A stretch of 32,450 nucleotides of DNA from an uncultured bacterium (GTDB lineage: Bacteria > Latescibacterota > UBA2968): NCBI GenBank assembly GCA_964471275.1, contig CAYYGZ010000019.1, forward strand, positions 1 through 32,450. Reading direction: 5' to 3'. Every line of letters begins with the position of its first letter. Within the stretch, counting starts at the first letter, position 1. A model generated the notes under the pieces. It searched no databases. It was not told where the DNA came from and saw only the letters and a list, made by a program, of their open reading frames with translations. A program made the position numbers and the translations under genes. Shown piece by piece: positions 21,986 through 32,450 of the stretch.

Positions 21986-22297
21986 CTTGCGTTTGGGGTC
22001 CAGTCAGCCCTGGCACTTGCGAGGGTGCCAGGATAGCGCAGGAGCTGCCGGTGTGACCACCGATCCCTGAACCCAGATTGAACCGGACCTACCCAGGCGG
22101 CGCTATCTGAAAACCAGTCTCTGCTGGTTGCCAAAAGGTCTCTTCACAATCCCGGAGAATCCTCCACGCCCGCGCTACTGGGCCCCGCTCGTGTTGACAC
22201 CACCCCACTCAGCGATGACAGTATATCGGTAGAACCTGGTCTTGAGCTCCCAGGGCGCTCCGTAGCCAGGGGATCCGGCATTGGGCGGGAAGGTCGT

Positions 22298-22807
22298 ATG
22301 CGTCACGTCACGATTCTATTTTTTATCTTCGCTGGCATCAGAGGCGCGAAACCTGGCGTCCACGCCGACACACTTCTCGGAAAGGATCAGAATGGTGCAG
22401 CTGTCGAACGGATCCGGGCATACGCCGGCCCGGACTCCGCCGATCTCTATGTATATGCCTCGTCAGAGGGTAAGGCCCTCATTCTGAAATCCTTCTGAGC
22501 GAACCGGAATCCCCTCATCTACCGTTACTACTATGGACTACAATTTGGGGCCCGGCAATACAGCATCTCTCACGCCTGGCTCAACGGCCACGATCTGGTA
22601 GCGTTCCCATTCGTCACGTGGTCCCCGACGGCTGATTCGGCAGTAATAGCGGAGGCCTGCAGGATCGTGAGCGGATGGGTTGGTGCGCGGCCCACAGACG
22701 CCATCGCGCGACGCGCCCTCGGATACCTCAGACTCGAACAAGGCCGGTGTGATGAGGCCGCTCACCACTTCGACAGAGCCATCAAGTTGTTCGATCGCGA
22801 TCCGTAA
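22298..22807 (+). pseudogene. Remnant of an exported TPR-containing protein gene with in-frame TGA at 22496-22498
   Basis: Signal-like MRHVTILFFIFAG. The frame stays open past the TGA for 102 codons and ends in the TPR-like PTDAIARRALGYLRLEQGRCDEAAHHFDRAIKLFDRDP before TAA. Confidence 0.55.
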
Positions 22808-22948
22808 AGGTGAAAGTGAGTCAAACGCATCACAGAGCTCAGCCTGCTTGGGCTCTGGCCTGTCCGGCTTCTCTCAGATACCGAATTCTCTGCCGCACCA
22901 CGCCCCTACGTAACCACCAAATCATCAGATACGTCCCTTGGGAACGGG

Positions 22949-22966
22949 GCCCAGACGGGCTTTTTT
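22949..22966 (+). terminator. Probable intrinsic terminator
   Basis: GCCC-AGAC-GGGC followed by TTTTTT. Confidence 0.55.
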
Positions 22967-22967
22967 G

Positions 22968-22996
22968 TTGACACCACCACGTCCATTAGATATTTT
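22968..22996 (+). promoter_or_regulatory. sigma70-type promoter of the ilv-leu operon
   Basis: TTGACA (22968-22973), 17 nt, TATTTT (22991-22996). Confidence 0.65.
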
Positions 22997-23050
22997 ACTG
23001 AATCTTGAAACGAATCTGGACTGAATTGATACCATCACCGTACTGAAGCA

Positions 23051-23224
23051 ATGCGCGAAATCGTGAACATCTTCTTCTATTTATTCCAGACACCTAACCT
23101 CGTTGTCGCGACGGTTCGGGGAGAAGTACGCGTTGCCCCTCCCGCTTCTGTGTTTTTGAGCACTCCTGTAGTAGCTTCGCTCATTATTGCGAGCCTTCTG
23201 GCCGTTCTTCTGGCCCTGCTCTAG
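23051..23224 (+). CDS. Putative Ile/Leu/Val-rich leader peptide (57 aa) of the ilv-leu operon
   Basis: MREIVNIFFYLFQTPNLVVATVRGEVRVAPPASVFLSTPVVASLIIASLLAVLLALL*; 12 of the last 18 codons are I/L/V; the stop overlaps an 11-bp hairpin. Confidence 0.55.
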   Translation: MREIVNIFFYLFQTPNLVVATVRGEVRVAPPASVFLSTPVVASLIIASLLAVLLALL

Positions 23225-23322
23225 GCTCAATTCCGACGATCCACACCTTTAGTCGCAATGAATTGAGCCTCTGGACAACCCAAAGGTAGCTCTTGTGATG
23301 TACGCCTCTTAAGGAATCGAAT

Positions 23323-23829
23323 ATGTTGAAACGACATACCATATCTGCCCTGGTCGAGAACCATTTCGGCGTTCTCTGCCGTATTGCCGGCTTATTTTCA
23401 AGTCGCGGCTTTAACATCGACAGCCTCTCGGTCGGGGAAACGGAAGATCCGAATATCTCTCGCATNNNNNNNNNNGTGAAGGGAGACGACCGGATACTCG
23501 AGCAGGTAGTCAAGCAACTGAATCGCCTGATCGACGTCATCAGGGTCATCGACATCACGCACGGCGCATTCGTTGAGCGTGAACTCGCGCTGATCAAGGT
23601 GAAATCCGACACCACCACACGGTCGGAGATCATCCAGATCTCCGAGGTCTTCAGGGCCAACATCGTCGACGTCAGCACGCATTCCCTGACGATCGAAGCC
23701 ACAGGCAGAGTCGACAAGATCAGCGCTATCATTGCGATGCTAGCTCAATATGGAATTACGGAAATGGCGAGGACGGGTAATGTGGCCCTCCTCCGGGACT
23801 CACAGCCCAAGCCCATAGACGCCGAATAG
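23323..23829 (+). CDS. ilvN: Acetolactate synthase small (regulatory) subunit
   Basis: [49 protein letters not shown]; in-frame 10-N gap. Confidence 0.96.
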
Positions 23830-24849
<1,020 letters not shown>

Positions 24850-24881
24850 ACCCTGAAAGGCACGAAAGGAGGTGATGCAGA

Positions 24882-25016
24882 GTGGATCTTGACCTTGGAG
24901 ACCAAGACCTTCAAGCTGAAGACAACATCGAATTAGAACTTAGCGAGCAGATGGAGTGCCTTGCCGGACAGATCCATCTGCACGACCCCGAATCCGACGT
25001 ACAAGGAGTGCTGTGA
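24882..25016 (+). CDS. Putative 44-aa acidic small protein or leader ORF
   Basis: SD AAAGGAGGTG upstream of GTG 24882; MDLDLGDQDLQAEDNIELELSEQMECLAGQIHLHDPESDVQGVL*; TGA overlaps the leuA ATG (TGATG). Confidence 0.55.
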   Translation: MDLDLGDQDLQAEDNIELELSEQMECLAGQIHLHDPESDVQGVL

Positions 25017-26572
25017 TGCCAGAGGGATCCGACGTAGATCGCGTATTCATTTTCGACACCACGCTGAGGGACGCAGAGCAGACACCTGGTTGCTCCCTCA
25101 CACCTCGAGAGAAGCTGGAAGTCGCGCAGCAATTGGCTCGACTGAACGTTGACGTCATCGAGGCCGGCTTCCCCGTCTCTTCGGACGAAGATTTCGAAGC
25201 CGTTCGCCGTATCGCCCAGGAAGTCGAGGGACCTAGCATTTGCGGACTCTCTCGAGCTGTGAACCTGGATATCGACAGAGCGGGCGAGGCACTAAAGGGT
25301 GCGCCAAACACACGCCTTCACACATTCGTAGGCACATCTCCCCAGCACATCGCGATGCTGCGGAAGGCCAAGGGGAACGACGATGTGCTGAAGATGGCCG
25401 TCGACGCTGTCGAGCGCGCACGCGGCCACTGCGAGGATGTCGAGTTCTCGGCGATGGATGCAGCTCGAACCGAACGGCAGTTCCTGTATGATATTGTGGA
25501 AGCGACGATTGCGGCTGGCGCCCGAACCATCAACATCCCGGATACTGTTGGTTACGCCATACCAGCAGAATTCGCACAGCTGATCTCTGACCTCCTGGCA
25601 AACGTACCCAACGTGGGCGAGGCAATCATCAGCGTTCACTGTCACAATGACCTGGGCATGGCGGTCACCAACACCCTATCCGCGATCAAGAACGGCGCAC
25701 GCCAGGCGGAATGCACGGTTAACGGACTGGGTGAGCGTGCGGGGAATGCCGCGCTGGAAGAGATTGTGATGGCGGTGAAGACCCGCGGTGACTACTTCGG
25801 CGTCGAAACATGCATCGAAGCCCGTGAGCTCATTCAGACAAGCCGTCTAGTCTCCCGTTTGATGAATGTATCCGTCCCACCAAACAAGGCTATCGTGGGT
25901 GCAAACGCCTTTGCCCACAGTTCCGGTATCCACCAGGATGGCGTGCTGAAGAACCGCGATACGTTCGAAATCATGGCTCCGGAAGACGTGGGGCTGGAAC
26001 AGACGCAGATCGTGCTGACGGCCCGTTCGGGACGACACGCCCTCAAACATCGCCTGGAGATTCTAGGCTACAGTCTGTCGGACAAGGACCTCAACAAAGC
26101 CTATGACCGATTCATAGCTGTCGCGGATAAGAAGAAGGAAGTCTTCGACGAGGACCTGGCTGCGATCGTCAGCGATGAGTTGACAGACATACCGGAAAAG
26201 TACGGTCTCGACTATCTGCACACCGTGAGCGGAACAGGAACGGTTCCGACCGCGACTGTCAGGCTGACGGTCGACGGCGAGGAATCTCAGGAATCGGCCT
26301 GGGGAGATGGACCTGTGGATGCTTCCTACAAGGCGGTCAAGAAAGCGGCGAGCACGCAGGCTCGCGTGGAGCAATATGCCATCCGGGCCATAACGAGTGG
26401 CGCGGAAGCTCTTGGCGAAGTTACGGTGCGCTTGAGCGACGAGGGTCTCGTCGCGACTGGCCGTGCGGTCTCCACCGACGTCATCGAAGCGAGCGTTAAG
26501 GCCTATCTCGACGGCCTGAATCGCCTGGCTGTCCAAGTGGGAATCGAGAAGCAGCGAGCAGAGGCCGTTTAG
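25016..26572 (+). CDS. leuA: 2-isopropylmalate synthase
   Basis: IFDTTLRDAEQTPG, IEAGFP, SVHCHNDLGMA, GERAGNAALEE, AHSSGIHQDG, regulatory domain GDGPVDA. Start ATG 25016 with AAGGAG RBS. Confidence 0.96.
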   Translation: MPEGSDVDRVFIFDTTLRDAEQTPGCSLTPREKLEVAQQLARLNVDVIEAGFPVSSDEDFEAVRRIAQEVEGPSICGLSRAVNLDIDRAGEALKGAPNTRLHTFVGTSPQHIAMLRKAKGNDDVLKMAVDAVERARGHCEDVEFSAMDAARTERQFLYDIVEATIAAGARTINIPDTVGYAIPAEFAQLISDLLANVPNVGEAIISVHCHNDLGMAVTNTLSAIKNGARQAECTVNGLGERAGNAALEEIVMAVKTRGDYFGVETCIEARELIQTSRLVSRLMNVSVPPNKAIVGANAFAHSSGIHQDGVLKNRDTFEIMAPEDVGLEQTQIVLTARSGRHALKHRLEILGYSLSDKDLNKAYDRFIAVADKKKEVFDEDLAAIVSDELTDIPEKYGLDYLHTVSGTGTVPTATVRLTVDGEESQESAWGDGPVDASYKAVKKAASTQARVEQYAIRAITSGAEALGEVTVRLSDEGLVATGRAVSTDVIEASVKAYLDGLNRLAVQVGIEKQRAEAV

Positions 26573-26740
26573 AGCGAACCAGCCGTGGGTTGGTGAAGTG
26601 CCAACTCCATCTCTCTGACCCCGCCGGGGTAGGGAGACACCATCGAGGCACCCGCACACACAGATCGCCATCAGCTGTCGCTCAGTGTGATGGCGATTCG
26701 TTCGCCACCCGAAGTTCAGTAGACACATTCAGGAGATAGT

Positions 26741-28144
26741 TTGATGGGTCAGAGTTTGTTTCAGAAGGTTTGGGATACCCATTCGGTCCGTACGCTTCCG
26801 TCGGGTCAGACCCAACTCTTCATCGGTCTCCATCTGATACACGAAGTCACGAGCCCGCAAGCATTTCAGATGATGCGTGAACTCAATCTGCAGGTCGCCT
26901 ATCCAGACCGCACCTTCGCAACTGTCGATCATATCGTCCCGACGGATGTGCGCACGCGCCCATTCGCGGATGAAATGGCCGAACAGATGATGGTAGCTAT
27001 TGAAGACAACACAGAAGAGTTCGACATTCCGCTCTATGACATGAACAATGAGAAACAGGGCATCGTTCACGTCATCGGACCGGAGCTTGGGCTTACACAG
27101 CCCGGAATGACCGTCGCGTGCGGGGACAGTCACACCTCTACACACGGTGCATTCGGTGCAATCGCCTTTGGGATCGGAACCTCTCAGGTGCGCGATGTGC
27201 TCGCCACACAGTGCCTGGCGATGGATCCTCTGAAGGTTCGCCAGGTTAAAGTGAACGGTGAATTGGGGAAAGGCGTATTTGCCAAGGACATCATCCTCAA
27301 CATCATTCGCCAGCTTGGCGTAAAGGGTGGTGTCGGCTTCGCTTACGAATTCGCAGGAGAAGCGATCAAGCGGCTCACGATGGAAGAGCGGATGACCATC
27401 TGTAACATGTCCATCGAGGGGGGGGCTCGGGCAGGATACATCAACCCGGACGAGACAACGTTTCAGTATCTCCGAGAACGTCAACACTGTCCGGATGGAG
27501 AAGCATTCGATCGGGCGGTCGACTGGTGGAAGTCGATGGCCTCAGACGAGGACGCGAATTACGACGATGTCTACGAGCTCGACGGCGCGATGCTGGAGCC
27601 AACCGTGACGTGGGGAATCACACCCAGTCAGGGGATCTATGTTTCGGAGAAGATCCCAACACTGGCGGACCTCCAAGTAGACGACCGTGATGCCGCAAGC
27701 GAGGCTTACGAATACATGGACTTCAAGCCCGGGCAGCCCATTGCTGGTACACCGATCGATGTCGCTTTTATCGGTTCGTGCACGAACAGCCGCATCTCGG
27801 ATCTCCGTGAAGCGGCGAGGATCGTGAAGGGTCAAAAGGCCTCCAACAAGGTCAAACCGCTCGTCGTTCCCGGATCTCAGGAGATCCAGAAGATCGCCGA
27901 GGCGGAAGGCCTACACGAGATCTTTGCTGAAGCCGGTTTCGAATGGCGCGAGGCGGGATGTTCCATGTGCCTCGCGATGAACCCGGATAAACTCGAGGGG
28001 CGTCAGCTGTGCGCGTCGTCCAGCAACCGCAACTTCAAGGGCCGGCAAGGCAGCCCGACGGGACGTACGCTCCTGATGAGCCCTGCCATGGTTGCGGCCG
28101 CAGCGATCGCTGGCGAAGTCGTCGACGTTCGCACGATGATGTAG
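26741..28144 (+). CDS. leuC: 3-isopropylmalate dehydratase large subunit
   Basis: [48 protein letters not shown]. Confidence 0.97.
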
Positions 28145-28154
28145 GAGGACGAGA

Positions 28155-28757
28155 ATGGCAGCTTCTTCAATAACCAAGATTGACGGGACCGGTATCGCCG
28201 TCCGCGGCAACGATATCGACACAGACAGGATCATACCCGCTCGTTTTCTTCGGATGATCACGTTTGAGGGACTTGGCGAATACGCCTTTGAGGACGATCG
28301 CAAATCCAATCCGGATCATCCGTTCAACAACGATACCTACAAGGGGGCGTCACTCCTGTTGGCCAACGGAAACTTCGGTTGTGGATCGTCTCGCGAGCAC
28401 GCTCCACAAGCCCTGAACCGCTGGGGTATCCAGGCCATCGTGAGCGAGTCGTTCGCCGAGATATTCCAGGGGAACTGTACGGCTATGGGCATCCCTTGTG
28501 TCACAGCCTCCCCTGCTGACGTAGCCAGGTTCCAGGACCATATCGAGGAGAATCCGGACGAGCCAATGACGCTCGACCTGACCAGGAAAACCCTTACCTC
28601 CGGGGATCTGAGCATCCCGGTCACACTCCCGGAGGGCAATCGCAAGTCGCTTCTCGAGGGGGCCTGGGACGCGACCGGTATGCTGATCGAGGGCGCCGTC
28701 GTAACAAGAGAGACTGCAGACAGTCTGCCGTATGTTAACGGTTTCCAGTCCAGCTGA
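28155..28757 (+). CDS. leuD: 3-isopropylmalate dehydratase small subunit
   Basis: IDTDRIIPARFL, NFGCGSSREHAP, SFAEIF. Confidence 0.97.
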   Translation: MAASSITKIDGTGIAVRGNDIDTDRIIPARFLRMITFEGLGEYAFEDDRKSNPDHPFNNDTYKGASLLLANGNFGCGSSREHAPQALNRWGIQAIVSESFAEIFQGNCTAMGIPCVTASPADVARFQDHIEENPDEPMTLDLTRKTLTSGDLSIPVTLPEGNRKSLLEGAWDATGMLIEGAVVTRETADSLPYVNGFQSS

Positions 28758-28820
28758 ACCACCCCGGAATCATCCAGCCGATACACGTCGGCATCATCAG
28801 ACTTAGTAACGGAGGAACCT

Positions 28821-29882
28821 TTGTCTCACAAAATCGCAGTCATTCCCGGTGACGGAACCGGTCCGGAAGTCGTCGCAGAGTCACTGAAGTGTCTCGAAGT
28901 CGCCGCGGACAAATTCGACTTCAAGTACGAAACAACTGAATTCGACTTCGGCGGCGAACGCTACAAGAGGACCGGCGAAACCCTCCCGGAAGGCGCCGTA
29001 GACGAGCTCAGACAGTTCAATACGATCATGCTGGGGGCCATCGGACACCCAGACGTCAAGCCGGGCATTCTCGAGAAGGGCATCCTACTCCAGGCGCGTT
29101 TCGATCTCGATCAGTATATCAACCTACGGCCTGTTAAGCTGTATCCCAACGTCGACTGCCCTCTCAAGGACAAGGGTCCCGATGATATCGACTTCGTTGT
29201 CGTCCGAGAGAATACCGAGGGCCTGTACGCTGGCGCGGGTGGCTACCTGAAGAAGGGCACCCCCGACGAGATCGCCGTTCAGGAATCCGTGAACACCCGC
29301 AAGGGTGTCGAGCGCTGCCTCCGCTATGCGTTTGAGCTCACACGCAAGCGCGACAAGGAGAAGACGCTCACGCTCTGCGGAAAGACCAACGTCCTCACCT
29401 TCGCCTTCGACCTATGGGAGCGCGCCTTCCACGAGATCGGCGAGGCCGAATATCCGGACATCAAGCGAGACTACGCCCACGTCGATGCAACCGTTATGTG
29501 GATGGTCAAGAATCCCGAATGGTTCGATGTCATCGTCACAGACAACATGTTTGGTGACATCATCACCGATCTTGGGGCCATGGTTCAAGGCGGGATGGGT
29601 GTGGCGGCAGGCGGAAACATCAATCCGGAGGGCGTCTCGATGTTCGAACCCATCGGAGGGTCAGCCCCGAAGTACACGGGCCAGGGCGTGATCAACCCGA
29701 TCGCCAGCATCGGGGCCCTTCAGATGATGCTCGAAACACTCGGTGAGGATGCCGCAGCCGACAAGGTTGGCGGGGCCATTGTCGAGGTTGTCGGCACAAA
29801 GCTCGAAAGCATGTCTGCCGGCCGGATGGGCTATTCCACATCTGAAGTCGGAGACCTGGTCGCTGAAGCAATCGCATCCTAG
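28821..29882 (+). CDS. leuB: 3-isopropylmalate dehydrogenase
   Basis: [54 protein letters not shown] start with GGAGG RBS; operon context. Confidence 0.93.
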
Positions 29883-29986
29883 GAGCAGTGAGGCTGCGGG
29901 TAGTGGGGCAACACACCTACCTCACTACCTGACAATTCACCGCAGTACAGTCACTTAGCGGATAGGGGAAACCAGGAGAAATGAGC

Positions 29987-30337
29987 ATGGCTGAAGTCAC
30001 CGTCTACCACAATCCTCAGTGAAGCAAGTCGCGTGGCGCGACGGACATCCTTCGCGAACGAAACGTCGAGTTCGGCGTGATCGAGTATATCAAAACACCA
30101 CCTAGCGAGTCCGAACTGAGAGGATTCCTTGGCCTGCTAGATGTTGACCCGAGAGATATGTTCCATCCCGGATCTTTCGAAAAACTAGGTCGAAATCTCG
30201 ACGATTTCACCACGCTGGATGATGTGGTCGGGCTGCTCCTTGAGCATCCGGAGGTCATGAACCGTCCCGTCTGCATCCGTGGAGGCAGGGCAGTGATCGC
30301 CCGACCGGCTGAACGGGTGAATAGCATCCTCGACTGA
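29987..30337 (+). CDS. arsC: ArsC/Spx-family (glutaredoxin-type arsenate reductase-like) protein, probable selenoprotein (TGA 30020-30022 = Sec12)
   Basis: AGGAG RBS 8 nt before ATG 29987; MAEVTVYHNPQ-[TGA]-SKSRGATDILRERNVEFGVIEYIKTPP...HPEVMNRPV...VIARPAERV. The TGA occupies the catalytic Cys of the YHNPxCSKSR motif. Confidence 0.88.
30020..30054 (+). promoter_or_regulatory. Putative bacterial SECIS element
   Basis: Upper stem GTCGCG (30028-30033)/CGCGAC (30037-30042) with TGG loop; lower stem TGAAG (30020-30024)/CTTCG (30050-30054). Confidence 0.6.
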
Positions 30338-30496
30338 GAACCAGAGAATCCATGGACTTCCACTATTACAACGTCGTAAGATCTGGAACCGAAGTGAGGT
30401 GGGATCATCCGGGCGGAGCCTTCCGCCCGGTCACCATTCTGAGCTGAGCCGAAGCCAACTCATTCAGGATATCCCAACCTTACAAAAGGAGCCACT

Positions 30497-32122
30497 ATGT
30501 CGAATGTAGTTCAGATCTACGACACCACTCTGCGTGACGGTTCTCAAGCAGAAGACATCGCCTTCTCCCTAGATGACAAGCTGTTGATCGCACAGCGATT
30601 GGACGATTTCGGGGTTGATTTCATCGAAGGCGGATGGCCCAACCCCACGAATCCCAAGGATCTCGAATTCTTCAAGCGTGCGAAAGCCGCGACCTTCAAG
30701 AACGCGAGTGTCACGTCTTTTGGGAGTACGCGGCGAGCGTCGACCAGACCGGAAGAAGACCCGACGCTCAACGCCCTGCTCAGCTCAGAGACCGAAACCG
30801 TCTGCATCTTCGGAAAATCCTGGACGCTCCACGTCACGGATGTACTCCGGATCGACCTCGACGAAAACGTCCGGTTGATCGAGGACTCGGTCGCCTACCT
30901 GCGATCCCGGGATCGAGACGTCATCTACGACGCAGAACATTTCTTTGATGGATACAAGGCCAACCCGGAATACGCCATACGGACACTAGAGGCCGCCGAG
31001 GCTGGTGGCGCGGGCTGTGTCGTGCTCTGTGACACGAACGGGGGTACGCTCCCGCTTGAGATGGCCGAAATCCTGAAAGATGTGAACGCGAGACTTGAAG
31101 GTCCCTTCGGCATCCACTCGCACAACGATGCGGGCGTGGGAGTAGCGAACGCCGTAGTCGCGGTCCAGGCGGGTGCGATCCAGGTTCAGGGAACCTTCAA
31201 CGGGTATGGGGAGCGGTGCGGGAACGCGAATCTCTGCACGGTTATTCCAAACATACAGCTCAAGCTGAACAAGCGGCTCAAGTCCGGTGAGAACCTTGAC
31301 GAACTGATGGAGTTCTCACGGTTCATCAGCGAGGTCGCCAATGTCTATCACGACCATCGGCAGCCTTACGTCGGCGAGAGCGCATTCGCTCACAAGGGCG
31401 GTGTACACATCGACGCCATGAGCAAGGCGCCCGCATCGTACGAACATTGTGAACCGGGCAGCGTCGGCAACCAGAGCCGGTTCCTTCTGTCCGAACAGTC
31501 GGGCACCGCCACAGTCGCGGCCAAACTCGATCACCTGCTGCCGGGTGTCGACAAACGAGACGCACGGGTCGTTGCGCTGCTCGACGAGGTCAAACGGCGA
31601 GAAAACCAAGGCTACATCTACGAGGGTGCCGAGGCATCGTTCGATATCCTCGCCAGGAGAGCGTTGCAGGGCTTTGAGGATCCGTTCAAGCTGATCGGCT
31701 TCCGGACCATCAACAGAAAGTCAGCCGAAGGAACAGAAGTCGAGGCAATCGTCAAGCTCGACGTAAACGGGGAACTCTGCCATACGGTCGCTGAAGGCGA
31801 TGGCCCCGTGAATGCCCTCGATGCGGCGCTCAGACTCGCTCTGGAGAACGAGTATCCTGTCATACAGACCGTCCGGCTTGAGGACTACAAGGTCCGTGTC
31901 CTCAGCAGCGGCGACGGGACGGCCGCCAAAGTTCGCGTTCTGATCGAGTCTTCCGACCGACATCGGGTCTGGAGCACGATTGGTGTGTCCGAGAACATCA
32001 TCGATGCAAGCTGGCTGGCCCTTGTGGACAGCCTCACTTACAAACTGCTGATCGACGGCGTGATCGGCGGCGAATCCGGTTCACCCACCGCGGACGTCTC
32101 TGACGAGAAGGCGATTGTCTGA
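30497..32122 (+). CDS. cimA: Citramalate synthase
   Basis: [81 protein letters not shown]. Confidence 0.92.
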
Positions 32123-32123
32123 A

Positions 32124-32450
32124 ATGCGTGTACTGTCTCGAAGATTGGAACGCCTCCCTCCATACGTGTTTCACGAGGTCAATGCCCTAAAGATAAAGCT
32201 GCGCCGTGAGGGTGTTGACATCATCGATCTGGGTATGGGGAATCCGGACCAGCCGACACCGGATCACATCATCGACAAGATGGTAGAGGTCGCTCACGAC
32301 CCGAAGGCACACGGATATTCCCCCTCGGCAGGCCTTCCGGCACTCAAGCGGGCTATCTGTCGTCACTACGATCGTCGGTTCGGGGTCTCGCTTGATCCAG
32401 AGACGGAGTCGATCGTCACGATCGGCTCTAAGGAGGGTATAGCCCACATC
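32124..32450 (+). CDS. Class I PLP-dependent aminotransferase (AlaC/LL-DAP aminotransferase-like), 3' end outside window
   Basis: Not in ORF track. [23 protein letters not shown]...[17 protein letters not shown]...HGYSPSAG...[20 protein letters not shown]. Confidence 0.9.

Follow-up and report, generated by a model that had tools for sequence, protein, structure and literature searches.

A gene in the window, the 32,450-nucleotide stretch of DNA analyzed here, encodes an ArsC-family protein of 116 residues in which an in-frame TGA takes the place of the catalytic cysteine codon, and the genomic evidence makes it almost certain that this UGA is read as selenocysteine (Sec). Sec-ArsC genes of this kind are already known and widespread. 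The new element is the sub-lineage to which the protein belongs, characterized by His60 and Cys96, and this sub-lineage appears to be undescribed. On balance, we favor a glutathione-independent selenol oxidoreductase that would share the role of the short orphan ArsC-like proteins and is probably not dedicated to arsenate.

The gene and its surroundings

Contig C19, which makes up the window, belongs to a 4.63-Mb genome with a completeness of 91.85%, and the best-matching sequencing runs are marine. When codon 12 is taken as Sec, the reading frame is open from ATG 29987 to a TGA stop at 30335-30337 and contains the motif HNPQ-U-SKS (Table 1). Under translation table 11 the ORF has 86 residues (30077-30337), and the protein-database entry (P0002) consists of the same 86 residues. 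A preliminary description, made from the letters alone, had considered this ORF to be the C-terminal part only and had placed a ribosome-binding site and ATG 29987 in the same frame. Both proposals are borne out by the open frame and by AGGAG 8 nt upstream of the ATG. A similar Shine-Dalgarno sequence occurs at the same position in most relatives. The second in-frame ATG, at 29981, is merely 2 nt from AGGAG.

Table 1. Features of the Sec-ArsC gene and their positions in the window
Feature	Position	Strand	Basis or remark
Shine-Dalgarno AGGAG	29974..29978	+	Spacing 8 nt to ATG 29987; sequence inspection
ArsC-family selenoprotein gene (predicted), 116 aa	29987..30337	+	Pfam ArsC, TIGR00014, predicted fold
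In-frame TGA, codon 12; predicted Sec at catalytic Cys12 position (His8-x3-Sec12-x2-Ser15)	30020..30022	+	51/51 orthologues; three studies
Palindrome GUCGCG-UGG-CGCGAC of the preliminary description, +9..+23	30028..30042	+	Exists; not favored, not conserved
Likely SECIS upper stem-loop, +17..+37	30036..30056	+	G24/G25 at 30043-30044; apical loop ~30044-30049; conserved pairing
His60 replacing Arg60 of the ArsC arginine triad, then one-residue deletion (HPGSF motif)	30164..30166	+	Alignment
Arg93 (= R773 ArsC Arg94), before conserved Pro94	30263..30265	+	Invariant, 107/107
Cys96, specific to the His60 clade	30272..30274	+	95/107 vs 0/167
Arg106 (= R773 ArsC Arg107)	30302..30304	+	105/107

The gene lies between leuB and a citramalate synthase gene and is enclosed by an ilv/leu cluster (23323-32450), in which these two neighbors are confirmed and the rest are named from their translations. 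Among 25 loci, this location of the Sec-ArsC gene is otherwise found only at L041 and L042. Consensus searches gave no sigma-70 promoter and no plus-strand terminator, and there are no Rfam matches within 22000-32450. The gap between the ArsC and citramalate synthase genes holds a G+C-rich inverted repeat of 9 bp (30409-30430), with no T run after it. For transcript support, no RNA run is listed, and one possible RNA run has no coverage of the TGA. Some 29 kb away from the Sec-ArsC gene, a segment truncated by the contig end (3-1300, minus strand) contains an ArsR-family regulator directly 5' of a KamA-family radical SAM gene.

TGA codon 12 is very probably read as selenocysteine

A search of the genome, proposed in the preliminary description as a check, found selA, selB, selC and selD, all above cut-off. 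One contig (C121) carries selA, selB and tRNA-Sec together, and selD bears an in-frame TGA of its own. With the full machinery in place, the proposal of a hidden UxxS selenoprotein, 116 residues long and belonging to the glutaredoxin-type ArsC family, stands.

The same TGA is found throughout the closest relatives. The Sec-ArsC protein is matched at E 1e-12 or better in 124 of 168 genomes of the phylum. All 51 matches of at least 56% identity have one TGA, and none of the weaker matches (32-42%) has any. These 51 orthologues (56-99% identity) share the TGA with conserved sequence on both sides of it, and selA is found in 49 of the 51 carriers, the two misses being genomes that are 80% and 91% complete. 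Homologues that alternate between Cys and TGA at this codon, for which the preliminary description had suggested looking, are abundant: codon 12 is TGA in 80, TGC in 81 and TGT in 29 of 190 readable loci (duplicates included; one contig-end locus skipped).

Independent support for the TGA comes from contigs of runs X1, X4 and X5, which belong to three studies (one possibly of the source sample) and span the codon with no other letters. This matters because stray stop codons do occur in the assembly at positions expected to hold Trp, Arg or Gln. Since the contigs of three studies and all 51 orthologues show the TGA, it did not arise from an assembly error. A broader alternative treats the codon as a genuine stop, as a lesion in a pseudogene, as an assembly error or as one read as Cys or Trp by another route, with a truncated product of 86-98 residues as the only one made. 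The stray stops of the assembly would fit it, as would the truncation of 50 of the 53 His60 database entries. However, the presence of the same TGA, with conserved flanks, in 51/51 orthologues and the agreement of three studies speak against it, and the truncated forms are missing the catalytic residue. TGA is also the stop codon of the ArsC gene itself, and the sole UCA-anticodon tRNA found is tRNA-Sec (27 tRNAs found, an incomplete set). We therefore regard this alternative as scarcely credible. For annotation, the consequence is that gene callers shorten the members of this clade and leave those 50 entries without the active site.

A likely SECIS element downstream of the UGA

Numbering from the U of UGA as +1, we consider the hairpin at +17..+37 to be the likely SECIS. 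Its stem-loop can lengthen to 30028-30064 in the source genome. The pair probability in the window is 0.91-0.95 for the stem +18..+25/+30..+37 and 0.06 for +9..+14/+18..+23, the pairs of the palindrome that the preliminary description had taken for a SECIS-like hairpin after the UGA. The palindrome is indeed in the sequence, but it was rejected as a SECIS, being improbable, poorly conserved (its pairs hold in 51.8% of cells among 47 distinct Sec 45-mers) and too close to the UGA, with a loop 11 nt past it that fails the published rule given below. The additional UGAAG/CUUCG arm contributes merely 1.5 kcal/mol.

The evidence for the downstream hairpin derives from the relatives and not from the fold of the window alone. 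Its stem, which has two registers, is paired in 80.9% or 87.9% of cells in the 47 Sec sequences, and the corresponding values for 100 Cys sequences are 27.6% and 40.8%. A pairing probability above 0.8 between nucleotide 19 and +32..+38 occurs in 42/47 Sec sequences and 1/100 Cys sequences. Synonymous-codon resampling gave a mean z of -1.9 in 27 Sec sequences (-2.5 for the window) and 0.0 in 62 Cys sequences. The fold of the window by itself is no better than dinucleotide shuffles (z -0.94; 33/200 as good).

The passages of PMC13188914 on the bSECIS rule call for a loop of 3-9 nt with a G among its initial two nucleotides, 16-37 nt past the UGA, on a stem of at least 4 bp with an energy of -7.5 kcal/mol or lower. 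The window has such a structure (loop +25..+30, -10.3 kcal/mol), but the minimum-energy fold, with the G-free loop ACAU, is more stable by 3.1 kcal. The downstream hairpin passes the rule in 43/46 clade members and 26/28 other Sec-ArsCs, compared with 36/127 Cys controls. The suggestion of an apical loop nearer to the UGA than that of the E. coli-type SECIS did not survive, as the loop of the conserved stem is near +25. This position is ordinary, since the loops of the SelD, FdhA and SelW-like genes of the same genome begin at +21 to +26. An RNAalifold consensus retained three pairs only, since there are two alternative registers in which the GCGC arms can pair. Covariation in the hairpin, another check put forward earlier, gave no real case: the changes are almost all one-sided and occur among related sequences.

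Family, fold and active site

The protein passes Pfam ArsC (PF03960) with 41.2 bits against a gathering cut-off of 24. With Cys in place of Sec it scores 87.4 bits with TIGR00014, below the cut-off of 106; the clade's members with Cys reach 85-88, and the Cys/Arg60 paralogue of the same genome scores 140.9. The UxxS motif (U12-S-K-S15) on a PF03960 protein places it in the Sec-ArsC 1 family as defined, that is 'Arsenate reductase (ArsC) 1', UxxS, COG1393/PF03960/TIGR00014. It resembles this family in the TGA at codon 12, the stand-alone ArsC of 113-119 residues, the HNxxUxxS motif, the downstream hairpin and Arg94/Arg107. In their catalogue entries, PMC1088965 (2005) reports 14 such sequences from the Sargasso Sea and PMC2398784 (2008) reports 77 from GOS; the family lists of PMC9312934 (2022) and PMC13188914 (2026) include it, with MBT3519430.1 as an example.

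An AlphaFold model made from 47 sequences (pLDDT 90.1) best matches short ArsC proteins and R773 ArsC, with TM 0.78-0.83. The agreement is close both with PDB 3f0i (Z 15.4, rmsd 2.3, 114 aligned) and with E. coli R773 ArsC (PDB 1i9d; TM 0.82, Z 14.1, rmsd 2.4, 114 aligned, ~30% identity). The alignment to R773 ArsC is ungapped through residue 60 and equates U12 with Cys12, H60 with Arg60, R93 with Arg94 and R106 with Arg107. Together with the frame, it confirms that the TGA is codon 12 at the catalytic cysteine. The preliminary description had also recognized the retained arginine motifs, NRP (Arg93) and ARP (Arg106), and had read H at the Arg60-like position; the alignment agrees on each, with identical numbering for residue 60. 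One MAFFT run moved the one-residue gap and set Arg60 opposite residue 61, but either way there is no Arg or Lys in residues 59-64.

His8, Asn9 and Ser15 are present, as is the Arg-Pro motif at 94-95, and His8, the residue 12 position, Ser15, Arg94 and Arg107 are shared with R773 ArsC. The arginine triad Arg60/Arg94/Arg107 is incomplete, with Arg93 and Arg106 present and His at 60. In R773 ArsC this triad binds arsenate, as stated in passages of PMC3169414 and PMC5593903, and Arg60 is listed as needed for resistance in a table of PMC5593903 and in a passage of PMC3169414. A protonated His60 beside the selenolate could stand in for Arg. The protein further differs from R773 ArsC in having Sec for Cys12, no C-terminal extension and a location outside an ars operon.

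The best structural and sequence matches are short orphan ArsC-like proteins (PDB 3f0i, 3rdw; VC2165), which are of equal length and also stand alone. Unlike the Sec12/His60 protein described here, they have Cys12 and Arg60. YffB/YusI and Spx/MgsR (PDB 1rw1, 2kok, 3gfk) have the same fold at 18-26% identity. In YffB, which passages of PMC3169414 propose to be a thiol reductase, the arginine triad is also incomplete. The Sec-ArsC protein differs from YffB and Spx in retaining the HN motif along with two arginines of the triad, and the genome has a separate YffB-like gene.

The His60/Cys96 clade

Among 288 distinct full-length sequences, residue 60 is His in 56 Sec loci and three database proteins, and Arg occupies it in 31 Sec loci and in 196 proteins with Cys; of two further proteins, read with W12, one has Arg and the other Ser. 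His60 is thus found in 56/56 Sec loci of the clade, and Arg60 in 31/31 Sec forms outside it. The 14 Sargasso sequences as published also have Arg60 (14/14, by eye), in contrast to the His60, one-residue deletion, usual Cys96 and frequent Asn16 of the clade. Cys96 is present in 50/59 clade members and in none of the Arg60 forms (0/31 Sec, 0/196 Cys; 0/227 combined). Arg16 is retained in just 25/59 clade members, with Asn16 often in its place, compared with 190/196 Cys forms. The clade is also more acidic, with a mean net charge of -7.0 vs -1.7. The 50 truncated database matches of the first search all have His60. In the best 150 cluster representatives at 50% identity, residue 60 is Arg in 144, His in five (all truncated) and Ser in one; fusion proteins among these 150 gave no functional clue.

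The His60 set forms one clade in FastTree trees from which truncated proteins were left out (support 0.984 and 0.999). Its branch arises within a set of Arg60 lineages, and several of these encode Sec and have a similar hairpin sequence. This nesting would fit a history in which Sec was inherited before the His60 change, but the nearest sister is mostly Cys, and supports are 0.28-0.93. The three His60 database proteins, two with Cys12 and one with Ser12 (P0009, P0012, P0006), are nested among the Sec forms and are natural comparators. Beyond Latescibacterota-type records, the one occurrence of the clade found is in a Gammaproteobacteria bin, on a contig of 2.7 kb (L047) that may have been binned wrongly. 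Arg60 forms of Sec-ArsC are frequent in Acidimicrobiales and in one Pseudomonadales family (L224-L280 for the two groups together), where Sec and Cys forms are interleaved; G169, of the Pseudomonadales family, has both forms. The literature examined here yielded no account of a Sec-ArsC with His60. Of the published sequences, the comparison covered the 14 from the Sargasso Sea, and unremarked His60 forms could be among the 77 GOS sequences or be represented by MBT3519430.1.

The acidic character of the clade bears on one alternative, a redox sensor or protein-binding switch of the Spx/MgsR type, in which Sec12 (with Cys96) would sense oxidants and there would be no turnover. The two share a superfamily (Spx Z 13.9, rmsd 2.4, 113 aligned), and the loss of basic pocket residues and the shift in net charge would suit a switch. 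Against it, CxxC is absent, UxxS standing in its place, and TIGR01617 (Spx/MgsR) gives 42.8 bits against a cut-off of 75, under the ArsC score, which leaves the protein outside that family. His8/Asn9/Ser15 and Arg106-Pro107 are kept here and are absent from Spx according to passages of PMC5593903. We consider such a switch very unlikely.

Arsenic and thiol genes in the genome and the phylum

No ars operon was recognized within 3 kb of the Sec-ArsC gene at 25 loci (from ORF clusters; three Pfam-scanned), and the neighbors within this distance differ among them. The source genome has arsR-acr3 on contig C148, with no arsC adjoining, and arsM on C301. It also has the Cys/Arg60 ArsC paralogue, above the TIGR00014 cut-off, on C338, the YffB-like gene on C32 and a glutaredoxin-like gene on C354. 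A thioredoxin-type ArsC (LMW-PTP fold; L215, C80:6014-6382, minus strand) has a premature TAA and a frameshift, from decay or assembly error, and no intact copy was found in the source genome.

Among the 51 carriers, acr3 was found in 16 and arsM in 11 (at most 14 arsM candidates scored per genome), and arsB was found in 0 of the 168 phylum genomes. All three are unmatched in 29/51 carriers (with the same limit for arsM; overlaps counted by hand), among them every one of the 21 genus g4 genomes, of which 13 are single-contig. Such absences mean that a gene was looked for and not found in genomes that are in part incomplete, and the counts are not independent because the genomes are kin. Arsenite can also leave the cell by other routes, such as aquaglyceroporins. 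The Cys/Arg60 copy is just as loosely linked to acr3 (0/15 in g7, 0/31 in g25). It accompanies the Sec form in just 8/51 carriers and is the sole copy in 73 genomes, which suggests that the two share one role.

R773 ArsC is coupled to glutathione and glutaredoxin. In contrast, no glutathione synthetase was found in the phylum sample: gshB and gshF were each found in 0/168 genomes, though the gshF model also had no positive above cut-off in control genomes, and uptake or other enzymes are possible. In the source genome, bshC was not found. The doubt over arsenate as the substrate, already voiced in the preliminary description, is strengthened by this gene context.

Proposed function

The alternative closest to the annotation is a Sec arsenate reductase with a retuned site, in which the more reactive selenolate would make Arg60 dispensable, His60 would supply the charge and thioredoxin or a thiol other than glutathione would donate the electrons. 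The nearest folds and sequences are ArsC, and the retained His8, Ser15, Arg93, Pro94 and Arg106 count against a substrate other than arsenate. The Sec form mostly replaces copies whose local representative passes TIGR00014. Furthermore, an arsenate reductase would be useful here, since the genome has arsR-acr3, arsM and a broken thioredoxin-type ArsC. However, Sec alone does not free position 60, since the other Sec forms, ours and those published, all keep Arg60, whereas this residue, listed as required for resistance, is His in every Sec locus of the clade. The frequent loss of Arg16, a TIGR00014 score below the cut-off that the Cys paralogue of the genome passes, the lack of a recognized ars operon nearby, the 29 carriers in which acr3, arsB and arsM are all unmatched and the failure to find gshB or gshF likewise argue against arsenate. 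In addition, passages of PMC9601151 report that VC2165, a short ArsC of V. cholerae with its catalytic residues intact, made no arsenite and did not reduce arsenate in vivo. Thus, we regard a retuned arsenate reductase as possible, but would tentatively decide against it.

We favor the selenol oxidoreductase over the arsenate reductase since a member of the triad is replaced, the usual reductant pathway was not found and the exporter is often missing. The host SelA, SelB, SelC and SelD system very probably translates UGA 12 as Sec, directed by the +17..+37 hairpin. Within the thioredoxin-like ArsC fold, the Sec12 selenolate would lie beside His8 and Ser15, with Arg93 and Arg106 forming an anion pocket. 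As a stand-alone cytoplasmic enzyme, the protein may attack an oxidized sulfur or an oxyanion-bearing substrate to give an Se-substrate adduct. Recycling without glutathione could then proceed through the thioredoxin system or a glutaredoxin-like protein, possibly via Cys96. The protein would take on the job of short ArsC-like orphans (YfgD/VC2165 type), which the Sec form mostly replaces in these genomes; this job is probably not arsenate detoxification.

Cys96, which is restricted to the clade, may be a resolving cysteine; its being missing in 9/59 members counts against such a role. A stronger proposal gives it a central part: a functionally new selenoenzyme that would have abandoned both arsenate and glutathione and would act on another substrate through a Sec12-Cys96 selenenylsulfide cycle. 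We think this unlikely, but if true, it would offer a clue to the job of orphan 'ArsC' proteins annotated as arsenate reductases in exporter-less genomes.

According to passages of the catalogue papers, what these predicted selenoproteins do is largely uncharacterized, and the notion of selenium in arsenate reduction rests on homology. The clade provides a clean natural test, with Sec or Cys at residue 12, Arg or His at residue 60 and Cys96 present or absent, in a phylum in which no glutathione synthetase was found (168 genomes) and an arsenite exporter is often lacking. If the substrate is indeed not arsenate, caution is needed when genes of this kind are taken as markers of arsenic resistance in metagenomes from the sea.

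Other candidate selenoprotein genes in the genome

A read-through scan of the genome gave likely selenoprotein genes on contigs C135, C100, C1, C22, C89, C29 and C58, which from their motifs we take to be SelD, FdhA, SelW-like, peroxiredoxin-like UxxC, BCP TxxU, deiodinase-like and sulfurtransferase genes. The FdhA gene has an E. coli-like SECIS. Contigs C68, C369, C35, C2 and C201 have in-frame TGAs where Trp or Arg is expected, along with a doubtful creatininase-like read-through candidate. Single-genome TGA calls need care because the assembly has background nonsense changes.

A further candidate is an M20 amidohydrolase (TIGR01891; C57:3178-4494, minus strand; L286, L288) with a TGA at the cysteine of its HG-C-GHN motif, presumably a metal ligand. 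The passages on selenoproteins in the 2026 review and the deep-Sep paper, and article titles, gave no match for an M20 amidohydrolase as a selenoprotein. Across the class (132 genomes), 55 orthologues have one TGA, and the orthologue of G154 has none. The hairpin is conserved, with its loop at +36..+39 in 24/25 loci.
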